Below the pieces are notes generated by a model, which ran no database searches, was not told the DNA's origin, and saw only the letters and a list, made by a program, of their open reading frames with translations. Positions 1 through 49,928 of a stretch of DNA of 51,879 nt are shown here, in pieces. How positions within the stretch are numbered: position 1 is the first letter of the stretch; each line of letters begins with the position of its first letter. The stretch spans positions 1-51,879 of the forward strand of contig MHIM01000012.1 of NCBI GenBank assembly GCA_001817505.1, read 5' to 3'. The DNA comes from Candidatus Buchananbacteria bacterium RIFCSPLOWO2_01_FULL_39_33. Its GTDB lineage: Bacteria; Patescibacteriota; Patescibacteriia; 2-01-FULL-39-33. Position numbers and translations under genes: made by a program.

Positions 1-209
1 GAAACGCCGGAAGAATTGGCTATCTTGCCTTGATAAGTTATTTGTTGGTTGATGCCTAAGGCGGCGCTGGTGATATCAGCTTTAGTTGAATCAAACCACA
101 ACCAAAACGCCGCCGTTATAAATGGCACGACAAGCAGAATTAAAGCCGTCATCATTTTTCTGATGATTTTGCTTTTTCCTTTAAATTTTTCTATTTCCAG
201 AAATGGCAT
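1..209 (-). CDS. hypothetical membrane-anchored protein, N-terminal fragment (gene continues beyond left edge)
   Basis: Not in ORF track because open at the edge. Minus-strand ATG at 207-209, open to position 1: MPFLEIEKFKGKSKIIRKMMTALILLVVPFITAAFWLWFDSTKADITSAALGINQQITYQGK. One hydrophobic helix. Starts 2 nt after the stop of the upstream HTH gene. Confidence 0.45.
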   Translation of the reverse strand, partial: MPFLEIEKFKGKSKIIRKMMTALILLVVPFITAAFWLWFDSTKADITSAALGINQQITYQGKIANSSGV

Positions 210-28224: not shown

Positions 28225-28296
28225 GCCGCCATCGTCTAGTGGTTAGGACATCAGGTTTTCATCCTGGCAACCGGGGTTCGATTCCCCGTGGCGGTA
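28225..28296 (+). tRNA. tRNA-Glu (anticodon UUC)
   Basis: 72-nt cloverleaf: acceptor GCCGCCA/TGGCGGT, D arm GTCT-AGTGGTTA-GGAC, anticodon stem TCAGG/CCTGG with loop TTTTCAT, T arm CGGGG-TTCGATT-CCCCG, discriminator A. No encoded CCA. Confidence 0.93.
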
Positions 28297-28342
28297 CATC
28301 AAAAATAAATATTCAGCTTACGCTGAGTATTTATTTTTGATG
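28297..28342 (+). terminator. 21-bp stem hairpin immediately after tRNA-Glu
   Basis: CATCAAAAATAAATATTCAGC ttac GCTGAGTATTTATTTTTGATG, with one G-U pair on the + strand. Confidence 0.6.
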
Positions 28343-28443: not shown

Positions 28444-29559
28444 ATGAAAAAAATCCTCATAATCATCTTAATTATTATAATTTTAGCCGGTAGTTTATAT
28501 TTTTTAAGAGTCCCGATCCAAAAATTATTTTTCCAACCCATCAACCCTAATGACGAACTTGGCCTTTCCAAAAATCAAATCAAAACTCCTGATATTGAAG
28601 TGATAGTTGATAATTTAACCATCCCCTGGGAAATAGCTTTCTGGCCAACCGGAGAAATATTAGTCACTGAAAGAATCGGCAATTTATTGAAAATCGGCCA
28701 AGCTAAAAAAGTCATTAAAATTGAAGGCGTTACAGCTGTGGGCGAGGGCGGCTTACAGGGACTAACACTTCATCCTGATTTTAAAAATAATAATTGGCTT
28801 TATTTATATTTAACTACCCAAAACAATAGTGTTTTAGTGAACCGTGTTGAGCGCTATAAATTGGTTGATAATAAATTAGAAGACAGAACAATTATTATTG
28901 ACAATATACCCGCTGCCCAATTTCACGACGGTGGCCGAATAGCTTTTGGCCCAGATGAAAAATTATACATCACTACCGGTGATGCCGGCCAGAGCGATAA
29001 GGCCCAGGATTTAAAATATTTAGGCGGGAAAATTCTGCGCTTAAACGACAATGGCTCAATCCCGGAAGATAATCCTTATGGCACAGCCGTTTATTCTTAT
29101 GGCCACCGCAATCCGCAGGGTTTGGCTTGGGATAATAAGAACCAATTATGGGCCACTGAACATGGCCGTTCTGGAGTGTTATCCGGCTACGATGAGCTAA
29201 ATTTAATCCAAAAAGGCAGCAACTATGGCTGGCCGATAATCCAAGGACCGGAAACTAAAGCTGGAATGATAGCCCCCATTATCCAATCCGGTGCTAATCA
29301 AACCTGGGCGCCAGCCGGGGCAGTTTATTGGGACAATAGTATTTTTTTCACCGGTCTAAGAGGCGAGGCGCTTTATGAATTTAATATCATTACTCAAAAA
29401 TTAACTCCCCATTTTTTTAAAGAATATGGCCGGCTAAGGGCCCTGGTTTTAAGTCCTGACAAGTTTTTTTATATCAGCACTTCCAACAAAGACGACCGAG
29501 GCCAAATCAATGAAGGCGATGATAAAATTATTAAAATCAATCCAAAGATTTTCAGATAA
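28444..29559 (+). CDS. PQQ-dependent sugar dehydrogenase-like beta-propeller (YliI/sorbosone dehydrogenase family)
   Basis: N-terminal signal anchor. HDGGRIAFGPDEKLYITTGD, GHRNPQGLAWD and NYGWP motifs. ATG 28444 preferred. Confidence 0.8.
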   Translation: MKKILIIILIIIILAGSLYFLRVPIQKLFFQPINPNDELGLSKNQIKTPDIEVIVDNLTIPWEIAFWPTGEILVTERIGNLLKIGQAKKVIKIEGVTAVGEGGLQGLTLHPDFKNNNWLYLYLTTQNNSVLVNRVERYKLVDNKLEDRTIIIDNIPAAQFHDGGRIAFGPDEKLYITTGDAGQSDKAQDLKYLGGKILRLNDNGSIPEDNPYGTAVYSYGHRNPQGLAWDNKNQLWATEHGRSGVLSGYDELNLIQKGSNYGWPIIQGPETKAGMIAPIIQSGANQTWAPAGAVYWDNSIFFTGLRGEALYEFNIITQKLTPHFFKEYGRLRALVLSPDKFFYISTSNKDDRGQINEGDDKIIKINPKIFR

Positions 29560-29642
29560 ATTTAATAGATAGCTAAATTATTATTTTTAGGATACAATAA
29601 CTATAATTAATAAATAACTAAAAAATAAGTTGTAAAAAACTT

Positions 29643-29969
29643 ATGCCCCCCATAACTAAAGTTAAAAAGGGCACTAAAACTGTTAGTAGAGTGGCAGTCC
29701 TTTTAATTATTTCAGCGGTAATTGCCGTTGGAGTGGGAATAGTAACTTTAACCACTTTAGGTCCGGCTTCCAAGCTGTCCGGTACTACACCCAGCTGGTG
29801 TTTGAGCAATGGTATTTTAGACAGTTTTGATACGGTGATTGGTAATACGGGCGACTCCTGTTTTCTGCAGACCACCCTATATCTAATGGTACTGAAAAGA
29901 TCCTCAAAGCCCCCAGTGGCTGTATTGAGCAAGAACCAGCCGTTTCGGTCACTGGCAACGTTTACCTGA
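29643..29969 (+). CDS. signal-anchor N-terminal piece of the cysteine-rich protein (frame changes near 29846-29870)
   Basis: MPPITKVKKGTKTVSRVAVLLIISAVIAVGVGIVTLTT is a basic N-terminus plus a TM helix. The later part of this frame looks non-protein-like, while the downstream frame is open from 29846. Confidence 0.5.
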   Translation: MPPITKVKKGTKTVSRVAVLLIISAVIAVGVGIVTLTTLGPASKLSGTTPSWCLSNGILDSFDTVIGNTGDSCFLQTTLYLMVLKRSSKPPVAVLSKNQPFRSLATFT

Positions 29970-30004
29970 ACAGTGCTCACACCATCACTGGCACACCTAA
30001 TTCC

Positions 30005-31321
30005 GTGGCCTGGAAATATGATGGCTCTGGTCTGCACCTAAAACTCTGCGATGATCCATATAGTGATAACTCTGGCAGCTTTACCGTCAAGGTCCAATGG
30101 CAAAAGGAGGGCACATTTTACACTTGCCATCCCAATGACGCTACTCGCTGTCAATTGGTTACTGGCTGTCCGGCTGGTCAAATTTGCTACGGTGATTCAA
30201 ATAGCTGCGGCAATGTCTGTTATTCATACATCACTCGCTACGCCTCTCGTTGCAGTTCAGCTACGGCTTGTGCGACAGTGACCGAAGCCGAATGCGCCAG
30301 CGGCAATAAACCTTGTTATACCACTGGTGATGTTTGTCTTAAATATGCGGCCAACGACTGCGCGGCGTCAACTCCAGTTACAACCTATACGACTTACAAG
30401 TGTTCAGGTAGTCCTAATTATAGCTGTACTCCAACTGTTTGCACTTTAGGAACTGATGGTTGTTATAATTCTCTTGATAGCTGTTCTTCATCTTGTAATG
30501 TCCAGGCCTTGTCAAAATATAAATGCAGTTCTTATCAATGCCAGGCCTGCACTGCCAGCGATCCCAGTTGCAGCCAAAATTATGCCGAGTGCGGGGTGGC
30601 TTGCCCGTTAGAATCAGAGTCGAGGGGTTGCTGTATCATTCTCAATGGTTTCAATAATCCGGTGGCTCGGTATGATAATTTGACCAGGGCTGAGTGTAAT
30701 GCTAAACCCATACGTTGGAGATTACAAAAAGTCGGTTCTTTCTGCCCGGGGAAAATTTGTACGGCCAACTATGGCTGTACCAATATTAATTATTGTTACC
30801 AATCAGGTGATTTAACCAAGGCAGACAACTCCTGTCCAGCCAATACCACTAAATGCGGCGGTTTCTATTGTAAAAGCGGCGAAGAGTGCAAATCTTACCT
30901 ATTTAAAAAGTTTTGTTCAGCCACTATTAATAGTTGTCCAGCAGCAAAAGGCAAACTTTGTGCTGCTGGCCAACGCAACACCTGTTGTCCCCTTAATTCA
31001 GTCTGTGGAAAATCCACGATTTTGGGCGCCGAAACGGCAGTTTGTCTGGCACCAGGAATTTGTACTGAAGAAATGTCTAGCTATTGCGGTAAAACTGATG
31101 ATGGTAAATTGTCGTGTTGTACTGCCGCTCCTAATCTTTCCTGCAAAAATGATGGTGAAACTGGTAATATTCCCGTTTGTCAAACCAAAGACGAAACTGC
31201 CTGTATAGCAGTGGGTCAAAAGTTTTGTCAGGGCACGGGCGACAAGGTGAATTTTAAGCGTTGCTGTCCTACTGGTACCTGCGAACATCATTCAAACGGC
31301 CTGCCTTTCTGTAACGATTAA
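30005..31321 (+). CDS. cysteine-rich secreted/surface protein (frame open upstream to 29846)
   Basis: 438 aa with about 55 Cys by my count. Recurrent C-x-G-x-C, CCP and C-x3-C spacings, rich in S/T/G/N, no TM helix. GC above the local background. The upstream in-frame extension ..GTEKILKAPSGCIEQEPAVSVTGNVYLNSAHTITG.. looks coding. Confidence 0.75.
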   Translation: MAWKYDGSGLHLKLCDDPYSDNSGSFTVKVQWQKEGTFYTCHPNDATRCQLVTGCPAGQICYGDSNSCGNVCYSYITRYASRCSSATACATVTEAECASGNKPCYTTGDVCLKYAANDCAASTPVTTYTTYKCSGSPNYSCTPTVCTLGTDGCYNSLDSCSSSCNVQALSKYKCSSYQCQACTASDPSCSQNYAECGVACPLESESRGCCIILNGFNNPVARYDNLTRAECNAKPIRWRLQKVGSFCPGKICTANYGCTNINYCYQSGDLTKADNSCPANTTKCGGFYCKSGEECKSYLFKKFCSATINSCPAAKGKLCAAGQRNTCCPLNSVCGKSTILGAETAVCLAPGICTEEMSSYCGKTDDGKLSCCTAAPNLSCKNDGETGNIPVCQTKDETACIAVGQKFCQGTGDKVNFKRCCPTGTCEHHSNGLPFCND

Positions 31322-31340
31322 TCATCTTAACAGTGGGAAT

Positions 31341-31386
31341 AAAAAAACGACCGCCATCTATTCTTTTCGATGGCGGCCTTTTTGTG
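31341..31386. terminator. bidirectional terminator between convergent genes
   Basis: CCGCCATC (31351-31358) pairs with GATGGCGG (31369-31376), flanked by an A-run and a T-run. Confidence 0.8.
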
Positions 31387-31398
31387 TTCTTTAACGGA

Positions 31399-31947
31399 TT
31401 AGCCGACAGCCATGATGGCCGTGGCGATTTCGTCTCCGATTTGGTTTAAGAACAATTTGTCCCGGACCGACAGATGGTTGACATCCAGCCACGGGAACTG
31501 GCTGATCAATTGATAGTATTCTGTCGGGGGTGGGCTTGAGGCCAGTCGGCGATCAAAGTTAGCCATTGCCTCGCGATCCTCGCGAGTGAGCGGCTTGTTT
31601 TGGAGTTTGAACCACAGTCGATAGGCCGAAAGCAATTCTCGTTCTTGGTTGACGAATATTAGATCGCGGATTTCTGGCTCTCTGATTTTAACAAATGGCA
31701 ATTGTTCTTTGATAAACTGTTTGAAATCAGGTGAGAGGCCAGCAAAATACCAGTGAGCGTCAAATTGCTCGCTTTTAGAGATATTTACTAAGTCAATGGC
31801 CAGGTAATGGTCATGGAAATAGCACAAAGTTCGCGTTCTGACTGCCGCTTTTTCAACCGCCACAGTAGCACAGTTGATGCAGTTGATAATAATTATTATC
31901 AGTCCAATTAAAATAAATGATTTTAATGTTCTCGTGGCTATCATCAT
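31399..31947 (-). CDS. hypothetical secreted/membrane-anchored protein
   Basis: 182 aa with an N-terminal hydrophobic segment (FILIGLIIIIINCINC). No known motif. Higher GC. Own TTGACA-17-TAGACT promoter. Confidence 0.6.
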   Translation of the reverse strand: MMIATRTLKSFILIGLIIIIINCINCATVAVEKAAVRTRTLCYFHDHYLAIDLVNISKSEQFDAHWYFAGLSPDFKQFIKEQLPFVKIREPEIRDLIFVNQERELLSAYRLWFKLQNKPLTREDREAMANFDRRLASSPPPTEYYQLISQFPWLDVNHLSVRDKLFLNQIGDEIATAIMAVG

Positions 31948-32035: not shown

Positions 32036-32097
32036 TCCGATAGCCAAATGGTTATTTTTAAGGTAAAATAATCTTAATTAATAAATAACTAAAAAAT

Positions 32098-32934
32098 ATG
32101 ATTTTATTTAGAAAAATCTTAATTTTTTCTTTGATTACCGGTCTTTTTGTCAGTATCAGCGCTGTTTTAGCTGTTAATCTGCCAGAGCCAGCCCAAGAGG
32201 TAGTTCCCGAACAGGCCGGTGTTTATGATGTTTTAGGACGACCCGATTTAAAATTAAAAGTTTTTGTTTATGAACCAAGAGTTGATCAGTCGGCTAAAAA
32301 TAATAATAATGGCAAACCAACTACTCAAGTTCCGCCAGAAATTTGCGCTTCAACTTCAGTGGCTGACCCTGATTCTCCAGCAGTGGTAGCTGGCGCCGGT
32401 TGGAAAATGCCGGCCCATTGGGTTTATAGATTAAACTTAAATAATGTTCCAACCGGAGTCGGCTCTCTCAACTTGCCGACTATTACTGATAACGCTTTTA
32501 ATCAATGGTCTATAGCTATTAATAATTTAGTTGCCATTGAGCGAGGGGAAGACACCACTTTAAATAAAGCCCAATTAGACAGCCAGAATATTATCGCTTG
32601 GGGACGGACACCGGGTACGGCTTTGGCGGTTTCTTATGTTTGGTATTATAATATTAGCGGGGAATTAGTTGAAGTTGATACGGTTATGAACAGTAAATTT
32701 ACTTGGTATTGGTCTAATCCTAATAATTGGCCGACTGATCAGACCTGCGCTTACAGCGGCGTTTATGACGCTCAAAATATTTTAACTCATGAACTTGGCC
32801 ATACTATCGGACTTGATGATGAATATGAGAGTAGCTATATAAATAACACTATGTATGGTTATGGCTCAAAAGGCGAAACCAAGAAAAATACTTTAACTAC
32901 TGGTGATAAAAATGGCGCCCTGACACTTTATTAA
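32098..32934 (+). CDS. secreted matrixin-like zinc metalloprotease (metzincin)
   Basis: Signal peptide. HELGHTIGLDDEY (HExxHxxGxxD), Met-turn candidate NNTMYGY, C-terminal LTTGDKNGALTLY resembling the matrixin D-x-x-G-x-x-x-Y motif. Confidence 0.8.
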   Translation: MILFRKILIFSLITGLFVSISAVLAVNLPEPAQEVVPEQAGVYDVLGRPDLKLKVFVYEPRVDQSAKNNNNGKPTTQVPPEICASTSVADPDSPAVVAGAGWKMPAHWVYRLNLNNVPTGVGSLNLPTITDNAFNQWSIAINNLVAIERGEDTTLNKAQLDSQNIIAWGRTPGTALAVSYVWYYNISGELVEVDTVMNSKFTWYWSNPNNWPTDQTCAYSGVYDAQNILTHELGHTIGLDDEYESSYINNTMYGYGSKGETKKNTLTTGDKNGALTLY

Positions 32935-37696: not shown

Positions 37697-39334
37697 ATGA
37701 ATATATTTGCTATATCAGGATTACTTATTGTAGTCACTTGCAGTGTGATGACTTTTTTAATGTTTGTGCAAGGCAGTGAACGATCTCATCGAATCTGGGG
37801 TATTTTTTGTATTACCGTGTTTTTTTGGGGTATTGGCGTATTTAAAATCGCTAGTACCGCTGATCCGGAAATAGCAATCTTTTGGTGGAGGATTGGTTAT
37901 ATTGGTGTTATTTTTATTCCCATAATTTTTACTCATTTTGTTTATGAGTTTTTGAAATTAAAAATAGGCTGGTATATATGGGCATTATACTTATTAGGAG
38001 TTATTTTTTTGTATCTCAATTTATTTACAGATTTATTTATTGGTCAAGTTAGGCTGGTTTTTAATCAGTTTTATTATATTTCCTCTCCCGGACTTTTATA
38101 TAGTTTATTTTTTGTATTATTTATCGTATTTGTTCTTTTCAGCCATATTAAATTATGGCAAGCTCTTAGAAAATCTCATGGAATTTTAAAAGTACAATTA
38201 AAATATTTTTTTTTAGCTACCATAATTGGTTTTAGTGGAGGTACATTGAGTTTTTTACCAGTTTTTAACATAAATTTATATCCATTTTTGAATTTAACCG
38301 TCTTTCTTTACCCCATAATTATGGGGTATGCTATTTTTAAACATCATTTAATGAACATTAGAGTTATTGCTACCGAATTATTTTCCGGTTTTTTAGTAAT
38401 TGTAACTTTTGTTAAAGTATTTTTTTATTCTTCTCTCACAGAATTATTTCTAGGAATTGCAGTATTTTTAATCACTGTTATTTTTTCTATTTTATTAATC
38501 CAATTAGTTTTAAGGGAGGTTAACCGTCGCGAACAAATGGAAATCTTGACCAAGAACTTGCAAAAAGTAACCAAGGATTTAAAAGTGGCTAATAACAAAA
38601 TAGAGAGATTGGACCAAGCCAAGCTGGAATTCTTATCCATCGCTTCCCATCAGCTTCGCACCCCGCTGACTGTTATCAAGGGCTATGTGTCTATGATGCT
38701 GGAAGGCAATTTTGGCCCGATATCCAAACCAATCAAAGAGAATTTAAACAAAATTTATTTGGCTAATGAACGGTTGATAAGTTTAGTGGAGAGTTTGCTC
38801 AATATTTCGCGTATTGAAGCTGGTCGTTTGGAATTTAATATTAAACCCACTAATTTGGTGGCAATAATCGCACCCTTGCTTAGCGGCTTTAAAGAAAAAG
38901 CTAAAGAAAAGAATTCAAAATTGAATTTTTTGCCGGCCAAAAATATTGAACAGGTCTTAGCTGACGCTCAAAAAATAAAAGAAGTGTTAACCCATTTATT
39001 AGACAACGCTATTAAATACACCAATGATGGCACTATTACTTTAAGATTATATCAAGCAGGCCAATCAGTAGTTTTCAGTTGCCAGGATACCGGCCGAAAT
39101 ATTTTAGCGCCGGCCTTACCTGATTTTTTTGATAGATTTATTCAAAAAAATAAAACCGTTACTGCCTTAACTCAAAATACCAACTTAGGTCTTTATTTTT
39201 CTCAAATGGTTATAGAAAAAATGGGTGGAAAACTTTGGGTAGAAAGCGCCGGAGCGAATCAGGGTAATAAATTTTATTTTAGTCTGCCCGGAATCGGTAA
39301 AAATCAAATTAAAAAATTGGGGATTAAAAATTAG
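37697..39334 (+). CDS. multi-TM sensor histidine kinase paralog with degenerate ATP-binding boxes
   Basis: About 7 N-terminal TM helices. H box SIASHQLRTPL and N box LLDNAIKYT are intact. The G1 box reads DTGRN and the G2 box reads NTNLGL, both having lost their glycines. Confidence 0.8.
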   Translation: MNIFAISGLLIVVTCSVMTFLMFVQGSERSHRIWGIFCITVFFWGIGVFKIASTADPEIAIFWWRIGYIGVIFIPIIFTHFVYEFLKLKIGWYIWALYLLGVIFLYLNLFTDLFIGQVRLVFNQFYYISSPGLLYSLFFVLFIVFVLFSHIKLWQALRKSHGILKVQLKYFFLATIIGFSGGTLSFLPVFNINLYPFLNLTVFLYPIIMGYAIFKHHLMNIRVIATELFSGFLVIVTFVKVFFYSSLTELFLGIAVFLITVIFSILLIQLVLREVNRREQMEILTKNLQKVTKDLKVANNKIERLDQAKLEFLSIASHQLRTPLTVIKGYVSMMLEGNFGPISKPIKENLNKIYLANERLISLVESLLNISRIEAGRLEFNIKPTNLVAIIAPLLSGFKEKAKEKNSKLNFLPAKNIEQVLADAQKIKEVLTHLLDNAIKYTNDGTITLRLYQAGQSVVFSCQDTGRNILAPALPDFFDRFIQKNKTVTALTQNTNLGLYFSQMVIEKMGGKLWVESAGANQGNKFYFSLPGIGKNQIKKLGIKN

Positions 39335-39337
39335 TTT

Positions 39338-40984
39338 ATGGATATAAAAAACATAGCGTTAATCATTGTCAGCTTGATTAATCTAATCTTGGGTTTTATT
39401 ATTTTAATTCAGCGTCCAGTCAAAAAATCAAATACTATTTTTAGTTTGATGGTTTTTAATGTGGTTTTATGGGCGGCTATTATTGTTGTTTACCGTCATA
39501 TTGCCCAACTGGAAACAGCTTTGATTTTAGTCCGTTTATTTTTTGCTATTGCTATTTTTATACCTTTGTTTTTTCTATTTTTTACTTTTATTTTTCCTTA
39601 CCAGAAAAAATTATGGAAGAAAACAGTAATTTTTATTATTTGTCTGCCGCCAATTATTATTTTTCTGCTGACTTTGTTCACTAATACTATTATTAGCGGC
39701 CTTCAGCCGGTGGTGGGAGCTGAAAGTTTGATTATTTTTAGCCGCTGGTTCTTTTTTTACGCTCTGACCAGTTCTCTTTATTTTATCTGGACACTGTTAA
39801 ATCTTTTTCTTGATATCTTTAAAACTTCGGGAATTATCAGAACTCAATTAAAATACATTTTTATTGGCTTGTTAGCTTCCTCGATAATTGCGCTCGGCAC
39901 TAATTTATTTATGCCCTGGTTCGGCTATTTCGGTCTTGATTGGATCGGCCAAACCTCAACAGTTATCTGGATAGCTTTTGTGGCTTATGCCTTGGTCAGA
40001 GAGCGGTTAATGGATGTGAAAATTATCACCACCATCTTATTTTCTATTTTTATAGTGGTTATATCGGTCTTTTACATTTTTGAAGCTCAAGATCAATTTG
40101 AATTAATGTCTAGGATATTGATGTTTATTTTAACCCTCGTTTTTATATTGTTGCTGATTAAATCGGTTTTAACCGAAGTCAATCGCCGCGAGGAAATAGA
40201 AAAATTAACCGTTAATCTGCAAATAACCACTAAAGACCTTAAAAGAGTTAATAAAGAATTGAAAAAATTAGATAAAGCCAAATCAGAGTTTTTATCAATT
40301 GCTTCGCATCAACTACGCACTCCTTTAACGGTTATTAAGGGCTATGTTTCGATGATGTTAGAAAACAATTTTGGTCAAGTCCCAAAATTAATTAAGGACA
40401 ATTTAAATAAAGTTTATTTATCTAATGAACGATTGATTAGTTTGGTGGAGAGTTTGCTTAATCTCTCACGCATTGAATCCGGTCATTTGGAGTTTAATAT
40501 CAAACCCGCTGATTTAGCGGAAATAACCAAGTCCATAGTTGAGGGTTTTAAACAAAAAGTCAGCCAAAAAAACTTGAAATTGGAATTTTTGCCGGCTACC
40601 AACATTCCCCAAGTTTTAGTTGACGCTCAAAAAATCAAAGAGGTTATCTCTAATCTAATTGACAATTCCATCAAATACACTAAGACTGGCGGCATTATTA
40701 TCGGGCTTCATCAAGAAAGCCAATCGGTGGTTTTTTCTTGCCAGGATACCGGCATCGGCGTTTTGCCAGAGGACTTGCCCAGGTTGTTTGAAAAATTCGT
40801 CCGGGGCAAGGGTATGATGCAGGTCTATACCGAGGGTACGGGCTTAGGGCTTTATTTTGCCCGCATGGTCATAGAAAATATGGGCGGGCGGATTTGGGTA
40901 GAAAGCGCCGGCCAGGATCAGGGCAGCAAATTTTCTTTCAGTTTGCCGATAGCTGATCAGAGTAAGGTGAAGAAAATTAAATAG
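39338..40984 (+). CDS. multi-TM sensor histidine kinase
   Basis: Paralog of the upstream gene with all boxes intact: SIASHQLRTPL, LIDNSIKYT, DTGIG, GTGLGL. Confidence 0.88.
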   Translation: MDIKNIALIIVSLINLILGFIILIQRPVKKSNTIFSLMVFNVVLWAAIIVVYRHIAQLETALILVRLFFAIAIFIPLFFLFFTFIFPYQKKLWKKTVIFIICLPPIIIFLLTLFTNTIISGLQPVVGAESLIIFSRWFFFYALTSSLYFIWTLLNLFLDIFKTSGIIRTQLKYIFIGLLASSIIALGTNLFMPWFGYFGLDWIGQTSTVIWIAFVAYALVRERLMDVKIITTILFSIFIVVISVFYIFEAQDQFELMSRILMFILTLVFILLLIKSVLTEVNRREEIEKLTVNLQITTKDLKRVNKELKKLDKAKSEFLSIASHQLRTPLTVIKGYVSMMLENNFGQVPKLIKDNLNKVYLSNERLISLVESLLNLSRIESGHLEFNIKPADLAEITKSIVEGFKQKVSQKNLKLEFLPATNIPQVLVDAQKIKEVISNLIDNSIKYTKTGGIIIGLHQESQSVVFSCQDTGIGVLPEDLPRLFEKFVRGKGMMQVYTEGTGLGLYFARMVIENMGGRIWVESAGQDQGSKFSFSLPIADQSKVKKIK

Positions 40985-41078
40985 AAATAAGAAATAGGAA
41001 ATAGGAAATAAGAAATAAGAGATAAGGGGGAAAAAAGTGAAGTAAGAATTAAGAATTATGAATCAAGAAAATTGAATA

Positions 41079-41107
41079 GAAATAGGAAATAAGAAATAGG
41101 AAATAAG
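41079..41107. repeat. left arm of a perfect 29-bp inverted repeat flanking the four-helix-bundle gene
   Basis: GAAATAGGAAATAAGAAATAGGAAATAAG is the exact reverse complement of 41513-41541. Confidence 0.9.
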
Positions 41108-41119
41108 AAAAAAGAAATT

Positions 41120-41506
41120 ATGGACAAAAAGTCACAATATTTAGAATTAAAAGATTTAGAAGTATATGTTGTTTCGAGAAAATATAGTAGTTTTGCTTGG
41201 AATATTTATAGTAGATTAAATTGGCAACAGAAAAAAATAATAGGTGATCAATTTATAAGAAGTACCGACTCAATAAGCGCCAATATCGCAGAAGGATATG
41301 GGCGCTTTCATTATTTAGATAAAAATAAATTTTATTATAATGCTCGTGGTTCTCTTTTAGAGTCACGACATTGGGCTGGATTAATGTTAGAAAGATTAAT
41401 AATTACCAAAGAAGAATTTTCGGTTGTTATTAGATATTTCATTGACATTTCTAAAATGTTGAATAAGCTAATCAAGTCACAAAACAATCGCAAACAACAA
41501 TTATAG
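41120..41506 (+). CDS. four-helix-bundle protein (23S rRNA intervening-sequence protein family)
   Basis: 128 aa. IRSTDSISANIAEGYGRF...YNARGSLLESRHW is the family signature. Confidence 0.85.
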   Translation: MDKKSQYLELKDLEVYVVSRKYSSFAWNIYSRLNWQQKKIIGDQFIRSTDSISANIAEGYGRFHYLDKNKFYYNARGSLLESRHWAGLMLERLIITKEEFSVVIRYFIDISKMLNKLIKSQNNRKQQL

Positions 41507-46406: not shown

Positions 46407-49400
46407 ATGACTGATCAAAAAAATAATCCTCTAATTGAAAAGGAATTAACAATCAAAAAATTCTGGGAGGACAATCAGATATTTCAAGAAAGTTTGGCTG
46501 CCACCAAAGATGGTGAGGTTTTTAGTTTTTATGACGGCCCGCCTTTTGCCACCGGCACGCCTCATTATGGCCATTTGGTGGCCAGTCTAATAAAAGACGT
46601 CGTACCTAGATATCAGACCATGAAAGGCAATTATGTTGAGCGTCATTGGGGCTGGGATTGCCATGGACTACCAGTGGAAAATTTAATTGAGCAGGAACTG
46701 AATTTGTCTAACCGTAAAGATATTGAAGGTTTAGGTATTGGTAAATTTAACGCCGCCTGCCGCTTAAGCGTTTTAAGGTATGCCGATATTTGGAAAAAAA
46801 CCATTCCACGTTTGGGCCGCTGGGTGGATATGGAAGCCGATTACCGCACGATGGAGCCCTGGTATATGGAAAGTATTTGGTGGGTCTTTAAGCAGCTTTA
46901 CGATAAAGATCTGATTTATGAGGGTTATAAGGCCATGCATATTTGCCCCCGCTGTGAAACTACTTTATCTAATTTTGAAGTGACTCAAGGTTATAAAGAT
47001 ATTAAGGATTTGGCGGTCACTGCTAAATTTGAATTGCTCCCACCCCCCTTACCCCCCCCTCCGGCAGGGGGGGAGAATATTCCCACTTATGTTTTGGCTT
47101 GGACGACTACTCCTTGGACTTTAATTGGTAATGTGGCCTTGGCGGTGGGCGAGGATATTGATTATGTGCTGGTTCAAGAAAACAAGAAAACAAGAAAACA
47201 AGAAAACAAGAAAGGTGAAGAAAAATTTATTTTAGCTAAAGATTTGGTTGATAAAGTTTTTAAAGATGAGGAATATGAAGTTATAGAAGAATTTAAGGGT
47301 AAGGATTTGGTGGGCAAGAAATATAAACCCCTCTTTGATTACTTTTTAGATAAAGATATTGAACACAAAGAAAATCTTTATACTATTGTCAGCGCTGATT
47401 TTGTCTCAACAACTGATGGCACTGGCATTGTCCATATTGCGCCGGCCTTTGGTGAGGAAGATCTGGCCCTGAGCCAGAAAAAAAATTTGCCCCTCATCCA
47501 ACATGTTGATTTAACTGGCCGGATTAAAACCGAAGCTAAAGAATTTGCCGGCTTGGAAGTCAAGCCCAAAGAAAATAGCCAGAAAACCGATGTAACCATA
47601 ATTAAATATTTGGCAGCTAAAAAATTATTATTTTCTGAAGAAGAATACGAGCATAGTTATCCGCACTGCTGGCGCTGTGATACGCCCCTCTTAAATTACG
47701 CCACCTCTTCTTGGTTTGTTAAGGTGACTGCTCTCAAAAAAGACCTGATTAAAAACAATAAAAAGGTTAATTGGGTGCCGGCGCATTTGAAAGACGGTCG
47801 TTTTGGCCATTGGCTGGCAGAAGCGCGCGATTGGGCAATTTCCCGCTCGCGGTTTTGGGGCACGCCCTTGCCGGTTTGGCGCTGCCAAAATTGCCAGGAG
47901 ATTAAAGTGGTCGGTTCCATTGAAGAATTGGATAAAAACAAGATTGATAATATTAATATTTACGCCATCCGCCACGGCGAATCGGAAAAAAACACTAAAG
48001 CCATTTTTAGTAATAATCTTAATAAATATCCTTTAACCGATTGGGGCCAAGAACAAACTGAGCAGGCCGTTAAAAAGTTAAAGGATCTTAAAATTGATTT
48101 AATTATTTCTTCGGAAGTTTTAAGATGTAAACAAACAGCCGAAATTTTAGCCAAAGAATTGGAGCGAGAATTAAAATTTGACTCTCGCTTAAATGAAGTT
48201 GACCCGGGCCAGTGGCAAGATCGGCCCGATAATAATGAGGCCGCTTTAAGAATGCTGACTCACTGGCGAACTGTTAATAATTACCAGATTCCTGATGGTG
48301 AAAGCGTTAGCCAGGTGGCAGAAAGGATGTTCAATCTTTTTAAGGCAATAAATAAAGATTACCAAGGTAAAAATATCTTATTGGTTTCTCATGGCGATAA
48401 TATCAGAATTTTAAATGGCCGACTCTTAGGCCTTAAAAATGGAGAAATTTTCCAAAAACCCATGCCGGAAAATACCGATGTTATCAAGTTGGCCGAAAAA
48501 ACCGTTGATTTACATAAAGATGTGGTTGATGCTATTGGGTTTGAGTGTCCGAAGTGTCAAAGCCAGATGAAAAGAATCAGTGAGGTTTTGGATTGCTGGT
48601 TTGAATCTGGTTCCATGCCTTATGCCCAATTCCATTATCCTTTTGAGAGTAAAGATAAATTTAAAAAAACTTTTCCAGCTGATTTTATCGCCGAAGGCGT
48701 CGATCAGACCCGCGGCTGGTTTTATACTTTAATGGTTTTGTCTACGGCTTTATTTAATCAGCCGGCTTTTTTAAACGTGATTGCCAACGGCATTGTCTTG
48801 TCAGCTAACGGCGCTAAAATGAGCAAGCGTCTGAAGAATTATCCTGAACCGGACTTGATAATGGACAAATACGGGGCTGATGCTCTAAGGTTTTATCTTT
48901 TGTCTTCGCCGGTTATGATAGCGGAAAACTTGAATTTTTCCGAAAGCGGCGTCAAAGAGATCTTCCAGAAAGTGATTATGTTGATGAATAATATCTTGAA
49001 ATTTTATAAGCTTTATGAGGTTGCTTCTCTAAAATCGAGTAATAATTCTAAAAATATTTTGGATCAATGGCTGTTAGCTAAACTGAATAAATTAATTGAA
49101 GATGTAACCAGGGCAATGGATGATTACCAGCTGGCCAAAGCTGTCCGGCCGCTCCAAGAATTCATTGACGAATTTTCCACTTGGTGGCTAAGGCGCAGCC
49201 GCGAACGTTTTAAATCCAGTGATGAGACCGACAAACAACAGGCCCTGATAACTTGCCAATTCGTTTTAATCGAACTGGCTAAGGTTATGGCTCCCTTTTT
49301 GCCCTTTTTAGCTGAGCAGGTTTATCAACAGGCCAACGGGCCGCTGAAGTCGGTTCATTTGGACAAATGGCCAAGAGCCGCTAAAGTCGACCAAAAAATT

Positions 49401-49928
49401 CTCGGACTAATGATCGGTGTCAGGAAAATTGTGGAATTGGGCTTAGCTAAAAGAGCCGAAGCCGGCCTAAAAATCAGGCAACCGCTGGCTTCGCTGAAAT
49501 TTTCAATTATCAATGATTCAGCTTTATTAGCTGGTTTTAAATTTTTAAACCAGCAAAAACAAGAAGAATTGTTTGGTCTAATTAAAGAGGAATTGAATGT
49601 TAAGGCCGTGGTTTTTGCTAAGGATCTCGGCCAGGAGGTGGAACTAGATACGGTGATAACTAAAGATTTGAGGTCGGAAGGATTATTGCGCGAATTAATC
49701 AGAACAATTAATAGCTTAAGAAAAGACCAAGGTTTAACTATCGGTGATAAAATTAAGGTTTTATGGCAGAGCGACAACCCGGAAATTATCAAAGTTTTAA
49801 CTGATAAAAAATTAGCCAATGAATTAAAAAACTCTGTCCTGGCTGATGAATTTGTAGCCACTGATAATACCGGCGAAGTCATAAAGATAAACGACGAAGA
49901 AATAAAAATCAAGATAGAAAAAATTTAA
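46407..49928 (+). CDS. ileS: isoleucine--tRNA ligase with three lineage-specific inserts
   Basis: 1173 aa. HYGH (HIGH), CP1 editing domain (WTTTPWTL), KMSKR, Cys4 knuckle WRCQNCQ / CPKCQ. Confidence 0.95.
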   Translation: MTDQKNNPLIEKELTIKKFWEDNQIFQESLAATKDGEVFSFYDGPPFATGTPHYGHLVASLIKDVVPRYQTMKGNYVERHWGWDCHGLPVENLIEQELNLSNRKDIEGLGIGKFNAACRLSVLRYADIWKKTIPRLGRWVDMEADYRTMEPWYMESIWWVFKQLYDKDLIYEGYKAMHICPRCETTLSNFEVTQGYKDIKDLAVTAKFELLPPPLPPPPAGGENIPTYVLAWTTTPWTLIGNVALAVGEDIDYVLVQENKKTRKQENKKGEEKFILAKDLVDKVFKDEEYEVIEEFKGKDLVGKKYKPLFDYFLDKDIEHKENLYTIVSADFVSTTDGTGIVHIAPAFGEEDLALSQKKNLPLIQHVDLTGRIKTEAKEFAGLEVKPKENSQKTDVTIIKYLAAKKLLFSEEEYEHSYPHCWRCDTPLLNYATSSWFVKVTALKKDLIKNNKKVNWVPAHLKDGRFGHWLAEARDWAISRSRFWGTPLPVWRCQNCQEIKVVGSIEELDKNKIDNINIYAIRHGESEKNTKAIFSNNLNKYPLTDWGQEQTEQAVKKLKDLKIDLIISSEVLRCKQTAEILAKELERELKFDSRLNEVDPGQWQDRPDNNEAALRMLTHWRTVNNYQIPDGESVSQVAERMFNLFKAINKDYQGKNILLVSHGDNIRILNGRLLGLKNGEIFQKPMPENTDVIKLAEKTVDLHKDVVDAIGFECPKCQSQMKRISEVLDCWFESGSMPYAQFHYPFESKDKFKKTFPADFIAEGVDQTRGWFYTLMVLSTALFNQPAFLNVIANGIVLSANGAKMSKRLKNYPEPDLIMDKYGADALRFYLLSSPVMIAENLNFSESGVKEIFQKVIMLMNNILKFYKLYEVASLKSSNNSKNILDQWLLAKLNKLIEDVTRAMDDYQLAKAVRPLQEFIDEFSTWWLRRSRERFKSSDETDKQQALITCQFVLIELAKVMAPFLPFLAEQVYQQANGPLKSVHLDKWPRAAKVDQKILGLMIGVRKIVELGLAKRAEAGLKIRQPLASLKFSIINDSALLAGFKFLNQQKQEELFGLIKEELNVKAVVFAKDLGQEVELDTVITKDLRSEGLLRELIRTINSLRKDQGLTIGDKIKVLWQSDNPEIIKVLTDKKLANELKNSVLADEFVATDNTGEVIKINDEEIKIKIEKI
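47047..47085. repeat. G/C-homopolymer hairpin element in frame in ileS (codes LPPPLPPPPAGGE)
   Basis: CCCCCCCT (47063-47070), ccggc, AGGGGGGG (47076-47083), within CTCCCACCCCCCTTA....GGGAG. Confidence 0.8.
47175..47214. repeat. 8-nt tandem repeat CAAGAAAA x4 plus one variant, inside ileS
   Basis: caagaaaa caagaaaa caagaaaa caagaaaa caagaaag. Codes QENKKTRKQENKK. Confidence 0.9.
47949..48506 (+). other. histidine-phosphatase (phosphoglycerate-mutase-like) domain inserted within IleRS
   Basis: IYAIRHGESEKN, LTDWGQEQ, ISSEVLRCKQTAEIL, NEVDPGQWQ, IPDGESVSQVAER, LLVSHGDNIR. Lies between WRCQNCQ and VDLHKD..CPKCQ. Confidence 0.75.

Follow-up and report, generated by a model that had tools for sequence, protein, structure and literature searches.

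A one-base deletion splits a Cys-rich gene, probably for an anchored surface protein, in a Buchananbacteria contig

In contig MHIM01000012.1 of Candidatus Buchananbacteria bacterium RIFCSPLOWO2_01_FULL_39_33 (assembly GCA_001817505.1), an open reading frame (ORF) at 30005..31321 on the plus strand encodes 438 amino acids, 55 of which are Cys; a shorter ORF of 108 amino acids, at 29643..29969, lies just upstream and encodes a hydrophobic helix. Positions 1 to 51,879 of the contig, the whole stretch of DNA that was analysed, are referred to below as the window. Is the Cys-rich ORF a gene of its own, what would its product do, and is this product made? The answer developed here, to which we assign a probability of about 0.68, is that the two ORFs are one frameshifted gene for a disulfide-packed, anchored surface stalk with a binding tip, and that the gene has recently lost its function in this copy. 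Its parts are listed below (P and L numbers denote related proteins and contigs, respectively).

29643..29880, plus: authentic 5' part (codons 1-79 and the first base of codon 80), with a basic cytoplasmic tail and a predicted signal-anchor transmembrane (TM) helix
29880..29881, plus: frameshift site, one C missing between these bases (intact CCCTATCATCTAATGG, window CCCTAT-ATCTAATGG)
29881..29969, plus: out-of-frame tail of the truncated product, 29 residues that are aberrant by comparison with P0007 and P0028; stop codon at 29967..29969
29882..30124, plus: Cys-poor ectodomain region in the true frame (the frame of 30005), weakly similar to the N-terminal region of P0020
30005..31321, plus: the 438-amino acid ORF as given by gene callers, with a GTG start; a frameshift artefact and not a separate gene
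30125..30604, plus: four tandem type-1 six-Cys modules, C-x4-7-C-x2-7-C-x5-6-C-[YS]x5-C-x3-7-C, from the Cys map and from matches to P0014 and P0026
30605..30805, plus: middle region, marked by a CC doublet and by loops that are longer and free of Cys, in part common with P0014 (the alignment reaches 'GCC...ECKP')
30806..31318, plus: conserved C-terminal domain, a tandem of four type-2 units (C-x6-7-C-x3-11-CC-x4-7-C-x8-12-C) that contains 23 Cys in this copy; from 17 homologs (32-45% identity, 16 invariant Cys), paired Cys, hhalign and AlphaFold2

The two ORFs differ in frame, 0 for the anchor ORF and 2 for the Cys-rich one, owing to the loss of a base after position 29880. An allele that has this base was recovered. 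At the DNA level, a contig from ENA (L012, ERZ27254759) is 100% identical to window positions 29411..30231, except for one extra C at 29880/29881. When a C is inserted at this position of the window, a single ORF of 559 amino acids with 58 Cys results, and its first 177 residues match P0007, a protein of 177 amino acids obtained by protein-level assembly of reads from SRR3989344, exactly. The first 79 residues of P0007 are those of the anchor ORF and the next 96 are those of frame 2, with 'SS' at the join. Another protein of the same cluster, P0028, is encoded by nucleotide contig L012 and contains the identical junction; like P0007, it is identical to the 108-amino acid ORF over the first 79 residues of the latter. 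We conclude that the anchor ORF and the Cys-rich ORF are one gene.

The deletion is carried, in identical sequence, by five further contigs: L001 (ENA), L002-L004 (JGI) and L013, which belongs to metagenome-assembled genome (MAG) GCA_001817455.1 at NCBI. An assembly error is an unlikely cause of the missing C, given the presence of the same deletion in different assemblies, at least six of them independent. The site of the deletion, CTAT(C)ATCT, is neither a homopolymer nor a short tandem repeat. Annotation pipelines disagree about the identical DNA: ORFs of 108 and 438 amino acids are called at JGI/ENA, while ORFs of 139 (on the minus strand), 76 and 347 amino acids are called at NCBI. Both sets of public ORF calls are artefacts of the one-base deletion.

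The N-terminal tail encoded by the 108-amino acid ORF has a charge of +5 and is followed by a hydrophobic helix of 23 residues (residues 17-39, nucleotides 29691..29759) with a Kyte-Doolittle peak of 2.84. Judged by hydropathy and charge, the helix would be a signal anchor and not a cleavable signal peptide. An earlier note on this DNA, which took the Cys-rich gene to be intact, had already seen a signal-anchor piece in front of it; the helix is indeed present, but in this allele it is in the other frame, and the 438-amino acid ORF is left without an anchor. Frame 2 is open from 29849 and its earliest start codon is the GTG at 30005. No signal sequence follows this GTG, and it is preceded by no AT-rich or Shine-Dalgarno (SD)-like context, unlike other genes of the window. 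Compared with the intact allele of L012, the indel truncates the product to 108 amino acids. Because the GTG has neither a start context before it nor an export signal after it, the window copy is most likely a recent loss-of-function (null) allele, from which the functional surface protein would not be made.

Two other readings of the same DNA were weighed. The ORFs could be two genuine genes, as annotated: a 108-amino acid membrane protein and a cytoplasmic, Cys-rich binder of metal or iron-sulfur clusters translated from GTG 30005. Gene callers report both ORFs, and a Cys content of 12.5% could in principle ligate metals. However, an allele just one base longer fuses the two ORFs, relatives have a single ORF with export signals, the last 29 residues of the 108-amino acid ORF are out of frame, and the GTG lacks a start context; moreover, the NCBI pipeline calls other ORFs on the same DNA, and the Cys residues covary pairwise (see below), with a single CxxC and few His. 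We regard this reading as highly improbable. No more credible is programmed recoding, in which ribosomes would shift by -1 inside the overlap of the two frames (29849..29966) and thereby make the complete protein despite the deletion. In favour of recoding, the frame past the deletion is open over its whole length and it is the frameshifted allele that prevails; however, inspection of the overlap revealed no slippery heptamer of the X_XXY_YYZ type and no long homopolymer, the region has no match in Rfam, and relatives are encoded in one frame. Since a plain extra-base allele exists, plain mutation is the simplest account of the frameshift.

The Cys excess of the ORF at 30005..31321 is real and far above chance. 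The earlier note had put the content at about 55 Cys in 438 amino acids; a count on the translation gave exactly 55 (12.5%), against 0.8% for the remaining 30 ORFs of the window taken together (100 of 12,372 codons). Ser, Thr, Gly, Ala and Asn are abundant as the background, in line with the Ser/Thr/Gly/Asn-rich composition described before, to which Ala is to be added. Among the spacings that were said to recur, CCP occurs twice and C-x3-C three times in the Cys-rich ORF, but a motif count found no C-x-G-x-C; CxxC occurs once, and the dominant spacings are C-x5-C, C-x6-C and C-x7-C. In the repaired protein, 58 of 559 residues are Cys (10.4%), an even number, and only 5 are His. The GC content of the gene is 0.454, with 0.554 at the second codon position (GC2) and 0.392 at the third (GC3), the latter the same as in neighbouring genes. 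The raised GC of the gene is due to codon position 2, that is, to its Cys, Ser, Thr, Gly, Ala and Pro codons. Foreign origin, suggested by the description of the locus as a higher-GC accessory block, was rejected accordingly: with GC3 at the level of the neighbours, nothing in the composition points to acquired DNA.

To what is the protein related? Homology to a characterised family was not found. Pfam gave nothing even at E<=10, whether the query was the 438-amino acid ORF, the 490-amino acid open frame, four sub-regions or all 18 family members, and NCBIfam gave 0 families at E<=1, the Myxococcus Cys-rich repeat type (TIGR02232) included. Searches of PDB sequences with phmmer and hmmsearch produced only a chance match, with E of 0.26. 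A word-indexed search of 5.8 billion proteins returned just the protein's own 90% cluster and, with a profile, two known relatives. The family was recovered only by an exhaustive phmmer search against 1.84 billion representative proteins, which yielded 22 proteins at E<=1e-3. Of these, 19 (P0008-P0013, P0015-P0025, P0027) align to the last ~165 residues, with 34-46% identity and E from 8.8e-26 to 6.4e-4; phmmer with the domain only gave E from 1e-34 to 4e-12. The family of this C-terminal domain is undescribed in Pfam, NCBIfam and PDB, the databases searched. A scan of GTDB species genomes revealed five loci, all in MAGs of Patescibacteria (Vogelbacteria, Paceibacterota, "Patescibacteria group" and one labelled Saccharibacteria). 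The family is uncommon, and those members that could be placed in a genome belong to Patescibacteria without exception. The gene, then, is conserved to the extent that relatives exist, while the window allele probably yields no functional protein.

Analysis by Cys spacing revealed two kinds of six-Cys module (type 1 and type 2 in the list above). P0014 matches the first Cys-rich half of the protein, with 33% identity over 236 amino acids (E 1e-22). P0026 is a GH16 enzyme with a flanking module: a four-Cys version of the type-1 module, 39% identical, is repeated on both sides of its GH16 domain. P0020 shares the anchor, the weakly similar Cys-poor N-terminal region and the C-terminal domain; in a BLASTP comparison a second segment, in the Cys-poor region, was matched at E of 6e-4, with CDDPYSDNSGSF aligned to CDGSGVYNDNSGSY. 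The C-terminal domain corresponds to residues 389-559 of 559 and so occupies the extreme C-terminus. Its internal repeats did not rise above composition-matched shuffles in self-BLAST and windowed Smith-Waterman comparisons; by profile, the repeat is visible, and units 2-4 align with one another at hhalign probabilities of 72-77%. By these alignments, the window protein is a mosaic of three parts that are also found separately.

The relatives bear Sec signal peptides or N-terminal anchors and fall into two subfamilies. In subfamily 1, a signal peptide is followed directly by the Cys domain and then by Ig-like domains (Big_7, Kre9_KNH, Flg_new_2), and two members (P0011 and P0018) end in a C-terminal PG_binding_1 domain. 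Synteny is kept at the loci of this subfamily (L007-L010), which lie after the glycyl-tRNA synthetase gene and before other genes for large secreted proteins. In subfamily 2, to which the window gene belongs, an N-terminal anchor is followed by a spacer and by the Cys domain at the extreme C-terminus (P0015, P0017, P0020, P0021, P0024, P0027). Anchor and Cys domain are encoded by a single ORF in P0015, P0016, P0017, P0020, P0021, P0024 and P0027, and the anchor pattern 'TKTKV..K + TM' is common to the window gene, P0015, P0016, P0024 and P0027. For the gene considered here, the export signal is part of the same polypeptide only in the intact allele (P0007, P0028, L012), the anchor of the window copy being out of frame. 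In both subfamilies the Cys domain is located at the far end from the element that fixes the protein to its cell; in the proteins with PG_binding_1 it is beside the signal peptide. Overall, the partner domains in the family belong to the cell envelope (Big_7, Kre9_KNH, PG_binding_1, GH16).

Two further features were observed among anchor-type relatives. A polytopic membrane protein of ~200 amino acids is encoded directly before anchor-type homologs (one P0021-like, the other P0027) and on the same strand at two loci (L015 4883..5512 and L006 3..554). The two copies are 51% identical, share an 'N-C-V-x-x-S-C-F' loop and match no Pfam family; none is encoded in the window. This protein could be a dedicated partner of the anchor-type homologs. 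In some anchor relatives (P0021, P0027 and P0024), LPGTG, LPVTG or IPQAG follows immediately after the N-terminal TM helix. These LPxTG-like motifs mirror the usual C-terminal sortase signal; they are not conserved, and the window protein reads LGPASK.

Are the Cys residues paired? In an alignment of 18 sequences of the ~165-amino acid domain (A3), 16 Cys are invariant and all 16 are in register in the window copy. Optional Cys residues come and go together. Positions 141 and 159 covary perfectly (both are Cys in 9 sequences and neither is in the other 9, among which P0020 has lost the two in a separate event); positions 17/28 and 94/113 co-occur likewise; and positions 10/21 are jointly lost in P0011 and P0018. 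P0021 seemingly has a gap at Cys28, yet this Cys is present in its strain variant from L015. P0026, for its part, lacks both central Cys of the type-1 module. Gain and loss in pairs argues for disulfides and not for metal ligands. The signature would be pairing mostly of Cys2 with Cys5 of each unit: covariation favours II-V in three units, and in unit 1 a single joint loss (P0011, P0018) hints at I-III.

These data, together with the export signals of the relatives, the single CxxC, the 5 His and the cell-envelope partner domains, support the view that the Cys-rich part is an extracytoplasmic module that would be disulfide-bonded. The disulfide-knotted extracellular module proposed in the earlier note is therefore retained, and the metal-binding function that the same note had considered is not, the optional Cys being lost pairwise. 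A metallothionein-like protein was likewise not matched, as there is one CxxC, x5-7 spacing is dominant, the relatives are exported and the optional Cys are paired.

With A3 as input, AlphaFold2 predicted a structure composed entirely of beta-hairpins (pLDDT 85.5, predicted TM-score (pTM) 0.75, 100 of 171 residues at >=90), in which the four C-terminal units, separated by very short linkers, form one body; a prediction for the single 490-amino acid sequence was unusable (pLDDT 35). Foldseek found no structural neighbour of the model in PDB (best E 0.9, TM-score 0.12) or in BFVD (best E 0.28, TM-score 0.17); the best-ranked entries, none of them significant, are EGF-like arrays and fibres.

The domain was compared with known disulfide-rich systems. 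Granulin/progranulin (PF00396) is similar in its tandem small all-beta stacked hairpins with laddered disulfides, CC doublets and 'CCPxG', and the start of the granulin ladder resembles the tentative pairing Cys1-Cys3, Cys2-Cys5 of the units. In contrast to the twelve Cys of the granulin motif, C-C-CC-CC-CC-CC-C-C, however, there are six per unit here; homology was rejected on the basis of an hhalign probability of 2.6% against human granulin A, with no granulin match in Pfam or by Foldseek. Knottins (inhibitor cystine knot) share the C-C-CC-C-C order, in units of 40-48 residues, and Cys2-Cys5 pairing, favoured here by covariation, may be a further likeness, but they are single small peptides with I-IV, II-V and III-VI bonds, whereas here the units are fused into a 165-amino acid body and one pair suggests I-III; no knottin was matched by sequence, or by Foldseek against PDB at E<0.9. 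Arrays of EGF-like or TNFR repeats are also elongated, extracellular and built from small disulfide-bonded beta-hairpin modules, and they supplied the top, non-significant Foldseek matches (EMR2 EGF domains, E 0.9; a cedratvirus EGF-like protein, E 0.28; TM-scores 0.12-0.18). Number and spacing of Cys differ from those here, and there is no Pfam EGF or TNFR match. Finally, monoderm surface proteins folded by MdbA/VKOR, such as the Actinomyces FimA pilin, are Sec-exported as well and fold by extracytoplasmic thiol oxidation; their Ig-like domains contain a single disulfide or a small number of them, as opposed to up to 29 in the Cys-knot-like modules considered here.

Proteins of a comparable composition have been described in the candidate phyla radiation (CPR). 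Extracellular proteins that are very rich in Cys and vary between strains are encoded in CPR genomes, and a role in attachment was proposed for them; those of Peribacteria (Anantharaman et al. 2016, PMC4736985) have a mean length of 1,655 amino acids and 7.2% Cys, and are weakly similar to Myxococcus Cys-rich repeats. Compared by description only, the present protein is like them in coming from CPR and from the same type of aquifer, in being exported or membrane-associated, in its extreme Cys content and in its variation between strains; it is unlike them in its size (559 amino acids), in its 10.4% Cys and in the lack of an NCBIfam or Pfam match of that kind. The remark in the earlier note that such a protein is unusual for a bacterium with a small genome was therefore overstated.

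What would the intact gene do? It would encode a type II membrane protein of 559 amino acids, whose cytoplasmic tail is short and basic and whose single signal-anchor helix is inserted by Sec. The ectodomain would begin with the Cys-poor region, followed by four type-1 six-Cys modules, the linker and the four-unit type-2 C-terminal domain. Outside the membrane, the Cys residues would be oxidised to form up to 29 disulfides, a task for which CPR typically encode MdbA-like oxidoreductases and VKOR, enzymes that are enriched in these bacteria (bioRxiv 10.1101/335083). This would give a stalk that is rigid, resists proteases and holds the conserved terminal domain off the anchor. Because the Cys domain is placed opposite the holding element in both subfamilies, we infer a stalk with a distal binding domain, which would most likely recognise a partner cell, a polymer of the cell wall or a polysaccharide/glycan. 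Such a role agrees with the attachment proposed for Cys-rich proteins of other CPR (PMC4736985). From the window allele, translation initiated at the true start would stop after 108 amino acids, and the remaining 438 codons would be left without an export signal or a convincing start.

Several observations weigh against this interpretation. The binding role is read from architecture only, no fold or sequence relative with a known ligand having been found. The C-terminal domain of the window copy has 23 Cys, an odd number; Cys10 is kept, and its usual partner, Cys21, is missing. No disulfide-forming enzyme, MdbA and VKOR included, is encoded within the 52-kb window. As for the loss of function, the frame downstream of the deletion carries no second lesion and frameshifted copies far outnumber intact ones, so that the broken gene may conceivably still be of some use.

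How do the two alleles compare in nature? The 108-amino acid ORF is present on 24+ contigs, and the intact form on one contig (L012) and in one protein-level assembly (P0007); thus, the frameshifted allele predominates in public data. A scan of JGI metagenome contigs for DNA of the intact allele gave 0 matches, the intact allele having been reached through cluster look-up. The locus varies in other ways as well. Over 7.2 kb, L001 and the window disagree at just 5 bases, which all fall in 30285..30313 (L001 4581..4609) and three of which are non-synonymous; the scaffold of L014 has a gap at 30270..30282, and L012 diverges after 30231. The cluster of single-nucleotide polymorphisms (SNPs) and the assembly breaks may mark a local recombination or conversion tract. 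Hypermutation of the diversity-generating retroelement type was rejected for the SNP cluster, since the changes are not adenine-specific. In L004 (JGI 3300009285), positions 1..63 are unrelated sequence in front of the gene, the start codon reads ATT instead of ATG, and a strong SD-like motif, AAAGGAGGT, is present that is absent from the window; the upstream part of this contig is either from a rearranged strain or a chimeric contig end.

The variety of these strain-level changes makes an on/off polymorphism a live alternative to a simple dead gene. The deletion would then be one state of a population-level surface-protein switch, with both alleles kept by the opposing effects of a liability, for example as a phage receptor, and of usefulness in host attachment. 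Both alleles were in fact recovered from one sequencing run, SRR3989344 (P0007 intact, P0032 frameshifted), the broken ORF has no secondary lesions, the same gene is otherwise strain-variable (5 SNPs in 29 nucleotides, assembly breaks at 30231-30285), and Cys-rich surface proteins of CPR have been described as varying between strains (PMC4736985). On the other hand, the site CTAT(C)ATCT, being neither a homopolymer nor a tandem repeat, offers no mechanism for rapid reversible switching. In addition, the intact allele was seen only twice and its one nucleotide contig diverges after 30231, so that a full-length intact copy is not documented. We consider such a switch rather unlikely, and a recent loss of function of a surface-protein gene remains our preferred account of the window allele. 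A bolder proposal, possible yet doubtful, is that the ~165-amino acid domain, with 8-12 disulfides, is a new Patescibacteria-specific fold that serves as a recognition tip for a partner cell or its wall, that on/off alleles are under conflicting selection (host attachment versus recognition by phages or predators), and that a shared upstream element (29568..29628, see below) marks a co-regulated set of secreted host-interaction proteins.

The surroundings of the gene contain the following features.

28225..28297, plus: tRNA-Glu (TTC), just upstream of a run of secreted-protein genes (glucose/sorbosone-dehydrogenase-like (GSDH-like), Cys-rich, zincin, DUF4015)
29568..29628, plus: AT-rich upstream element, a putative promoter or 5' leader; near-copy at 32039..32098, directly before the zincin-like gene
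31336..31392, no single strand: strong bidirectional intrinsic terminator between the Cys-rich gene and the 182-amino acid ORF; its hairpin (-20.4 kcal/mol, z = -5.3) has an A-run on one side and a U-run on the other
31399..31947, minus: convergent orphan ORF of 182 amino acids, with a hydrophobic N-terminus and a GAGGAGG ribosome-binding site
32098..32934, plus: M10-like zincin gene, with an HELGH motif and a signal peptide

The Cys-rich gene had been described as lying beside a secreted metalloprotease and another secreted protein. A zincin-like gene is indeed nearby, but it is not adjacent, being separated by the 182-amino acid ORF; the upstream neighbour is the GSDH-like gene, and a DUF4015 gene follows the zincin gene. 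No integrated element was noticed near the tRNA-Glu gene, although no search aimed at one was made. A 23-nucleotide exact core of the upstream element, TAATTAATAAATAACTAAAAAAT, occurs within the window only at 29604..29626 and 32075..32097 (0 expected by chance), ~60 nucleotides can be aligned, and by reading, a perfect TATAAT is present at 29602..29607. The occurrence of the element before both genes suggests a shared promoter or leader and co-regulation.

The shared element raises the question of whether the Cys-rich protein is a partner of the nearby zincin, either as a membrane-tethered inhibitor of this M10-like metalloprotease or as a polyprotein substrate that is cut into modules, like progranulin. 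The ~60-nucleotide element, found in the window only upstream of these two genes, would fit with such a role, as would the signal peptide and the HELGH motif of the zincin-like protein; many small disulfide-rich domains are protease inhibitors. However, no similarity to any inhibitor family was found in Pfam searches, and the short linkers and the one-body AlphaFold2 model argue against the release of separate peptides. At the homolog loci inspected, the zincin, GSDH-like and 182-amino acid genes do not recur beside the homologs. Because zincin is missing from these loci, support for a protease-partner role comes down to the shared element, and we judge this role very unlikely.

Some further observations concern the window in general. 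The 182-amino acid ORF has the highest GC3 in the window (0.51) and no family match, and its position is kept in all strain contigs. About two thirds of the window ORFs have no SD-like motif and are preceded by AT-rich sequence right up to the start codon, which points to mostly SD-independent initiation in this organism. In an isoleucyl-tRNA synthetase-like ORF of 1173 amino acids (46407..49928, plus strand), a complete histidine-phosphatase domain (His_Phos_1, residues 518-695, E 6e-39) separates the catalytic part from the anticodon-binding part, an unusual fusion. At 37697..41506, two tandem HisKA_7TM kinase genes and a gene for a "23S rRNA intervening sequence protein" have a GC content of 0.28-0.36, well below the rest of the window.

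For the window itself the practical message is modest, the copy being probably null. The prevailing view of CPR/Patescibacteria is that they live attached to other cells, and to our knowledge almost no CPR surface protein has a known structure or ligand. A disulfide-dense domain for which Pfam, NCBIfam, PDB and BFVD yielded no relative by sequence or by fold is thus a target for structure determination and binding screens. With broken and intact alleles both present in nature, the gene may also be usable as a marker of surface-protein turnover in an uncultivated symbiont.

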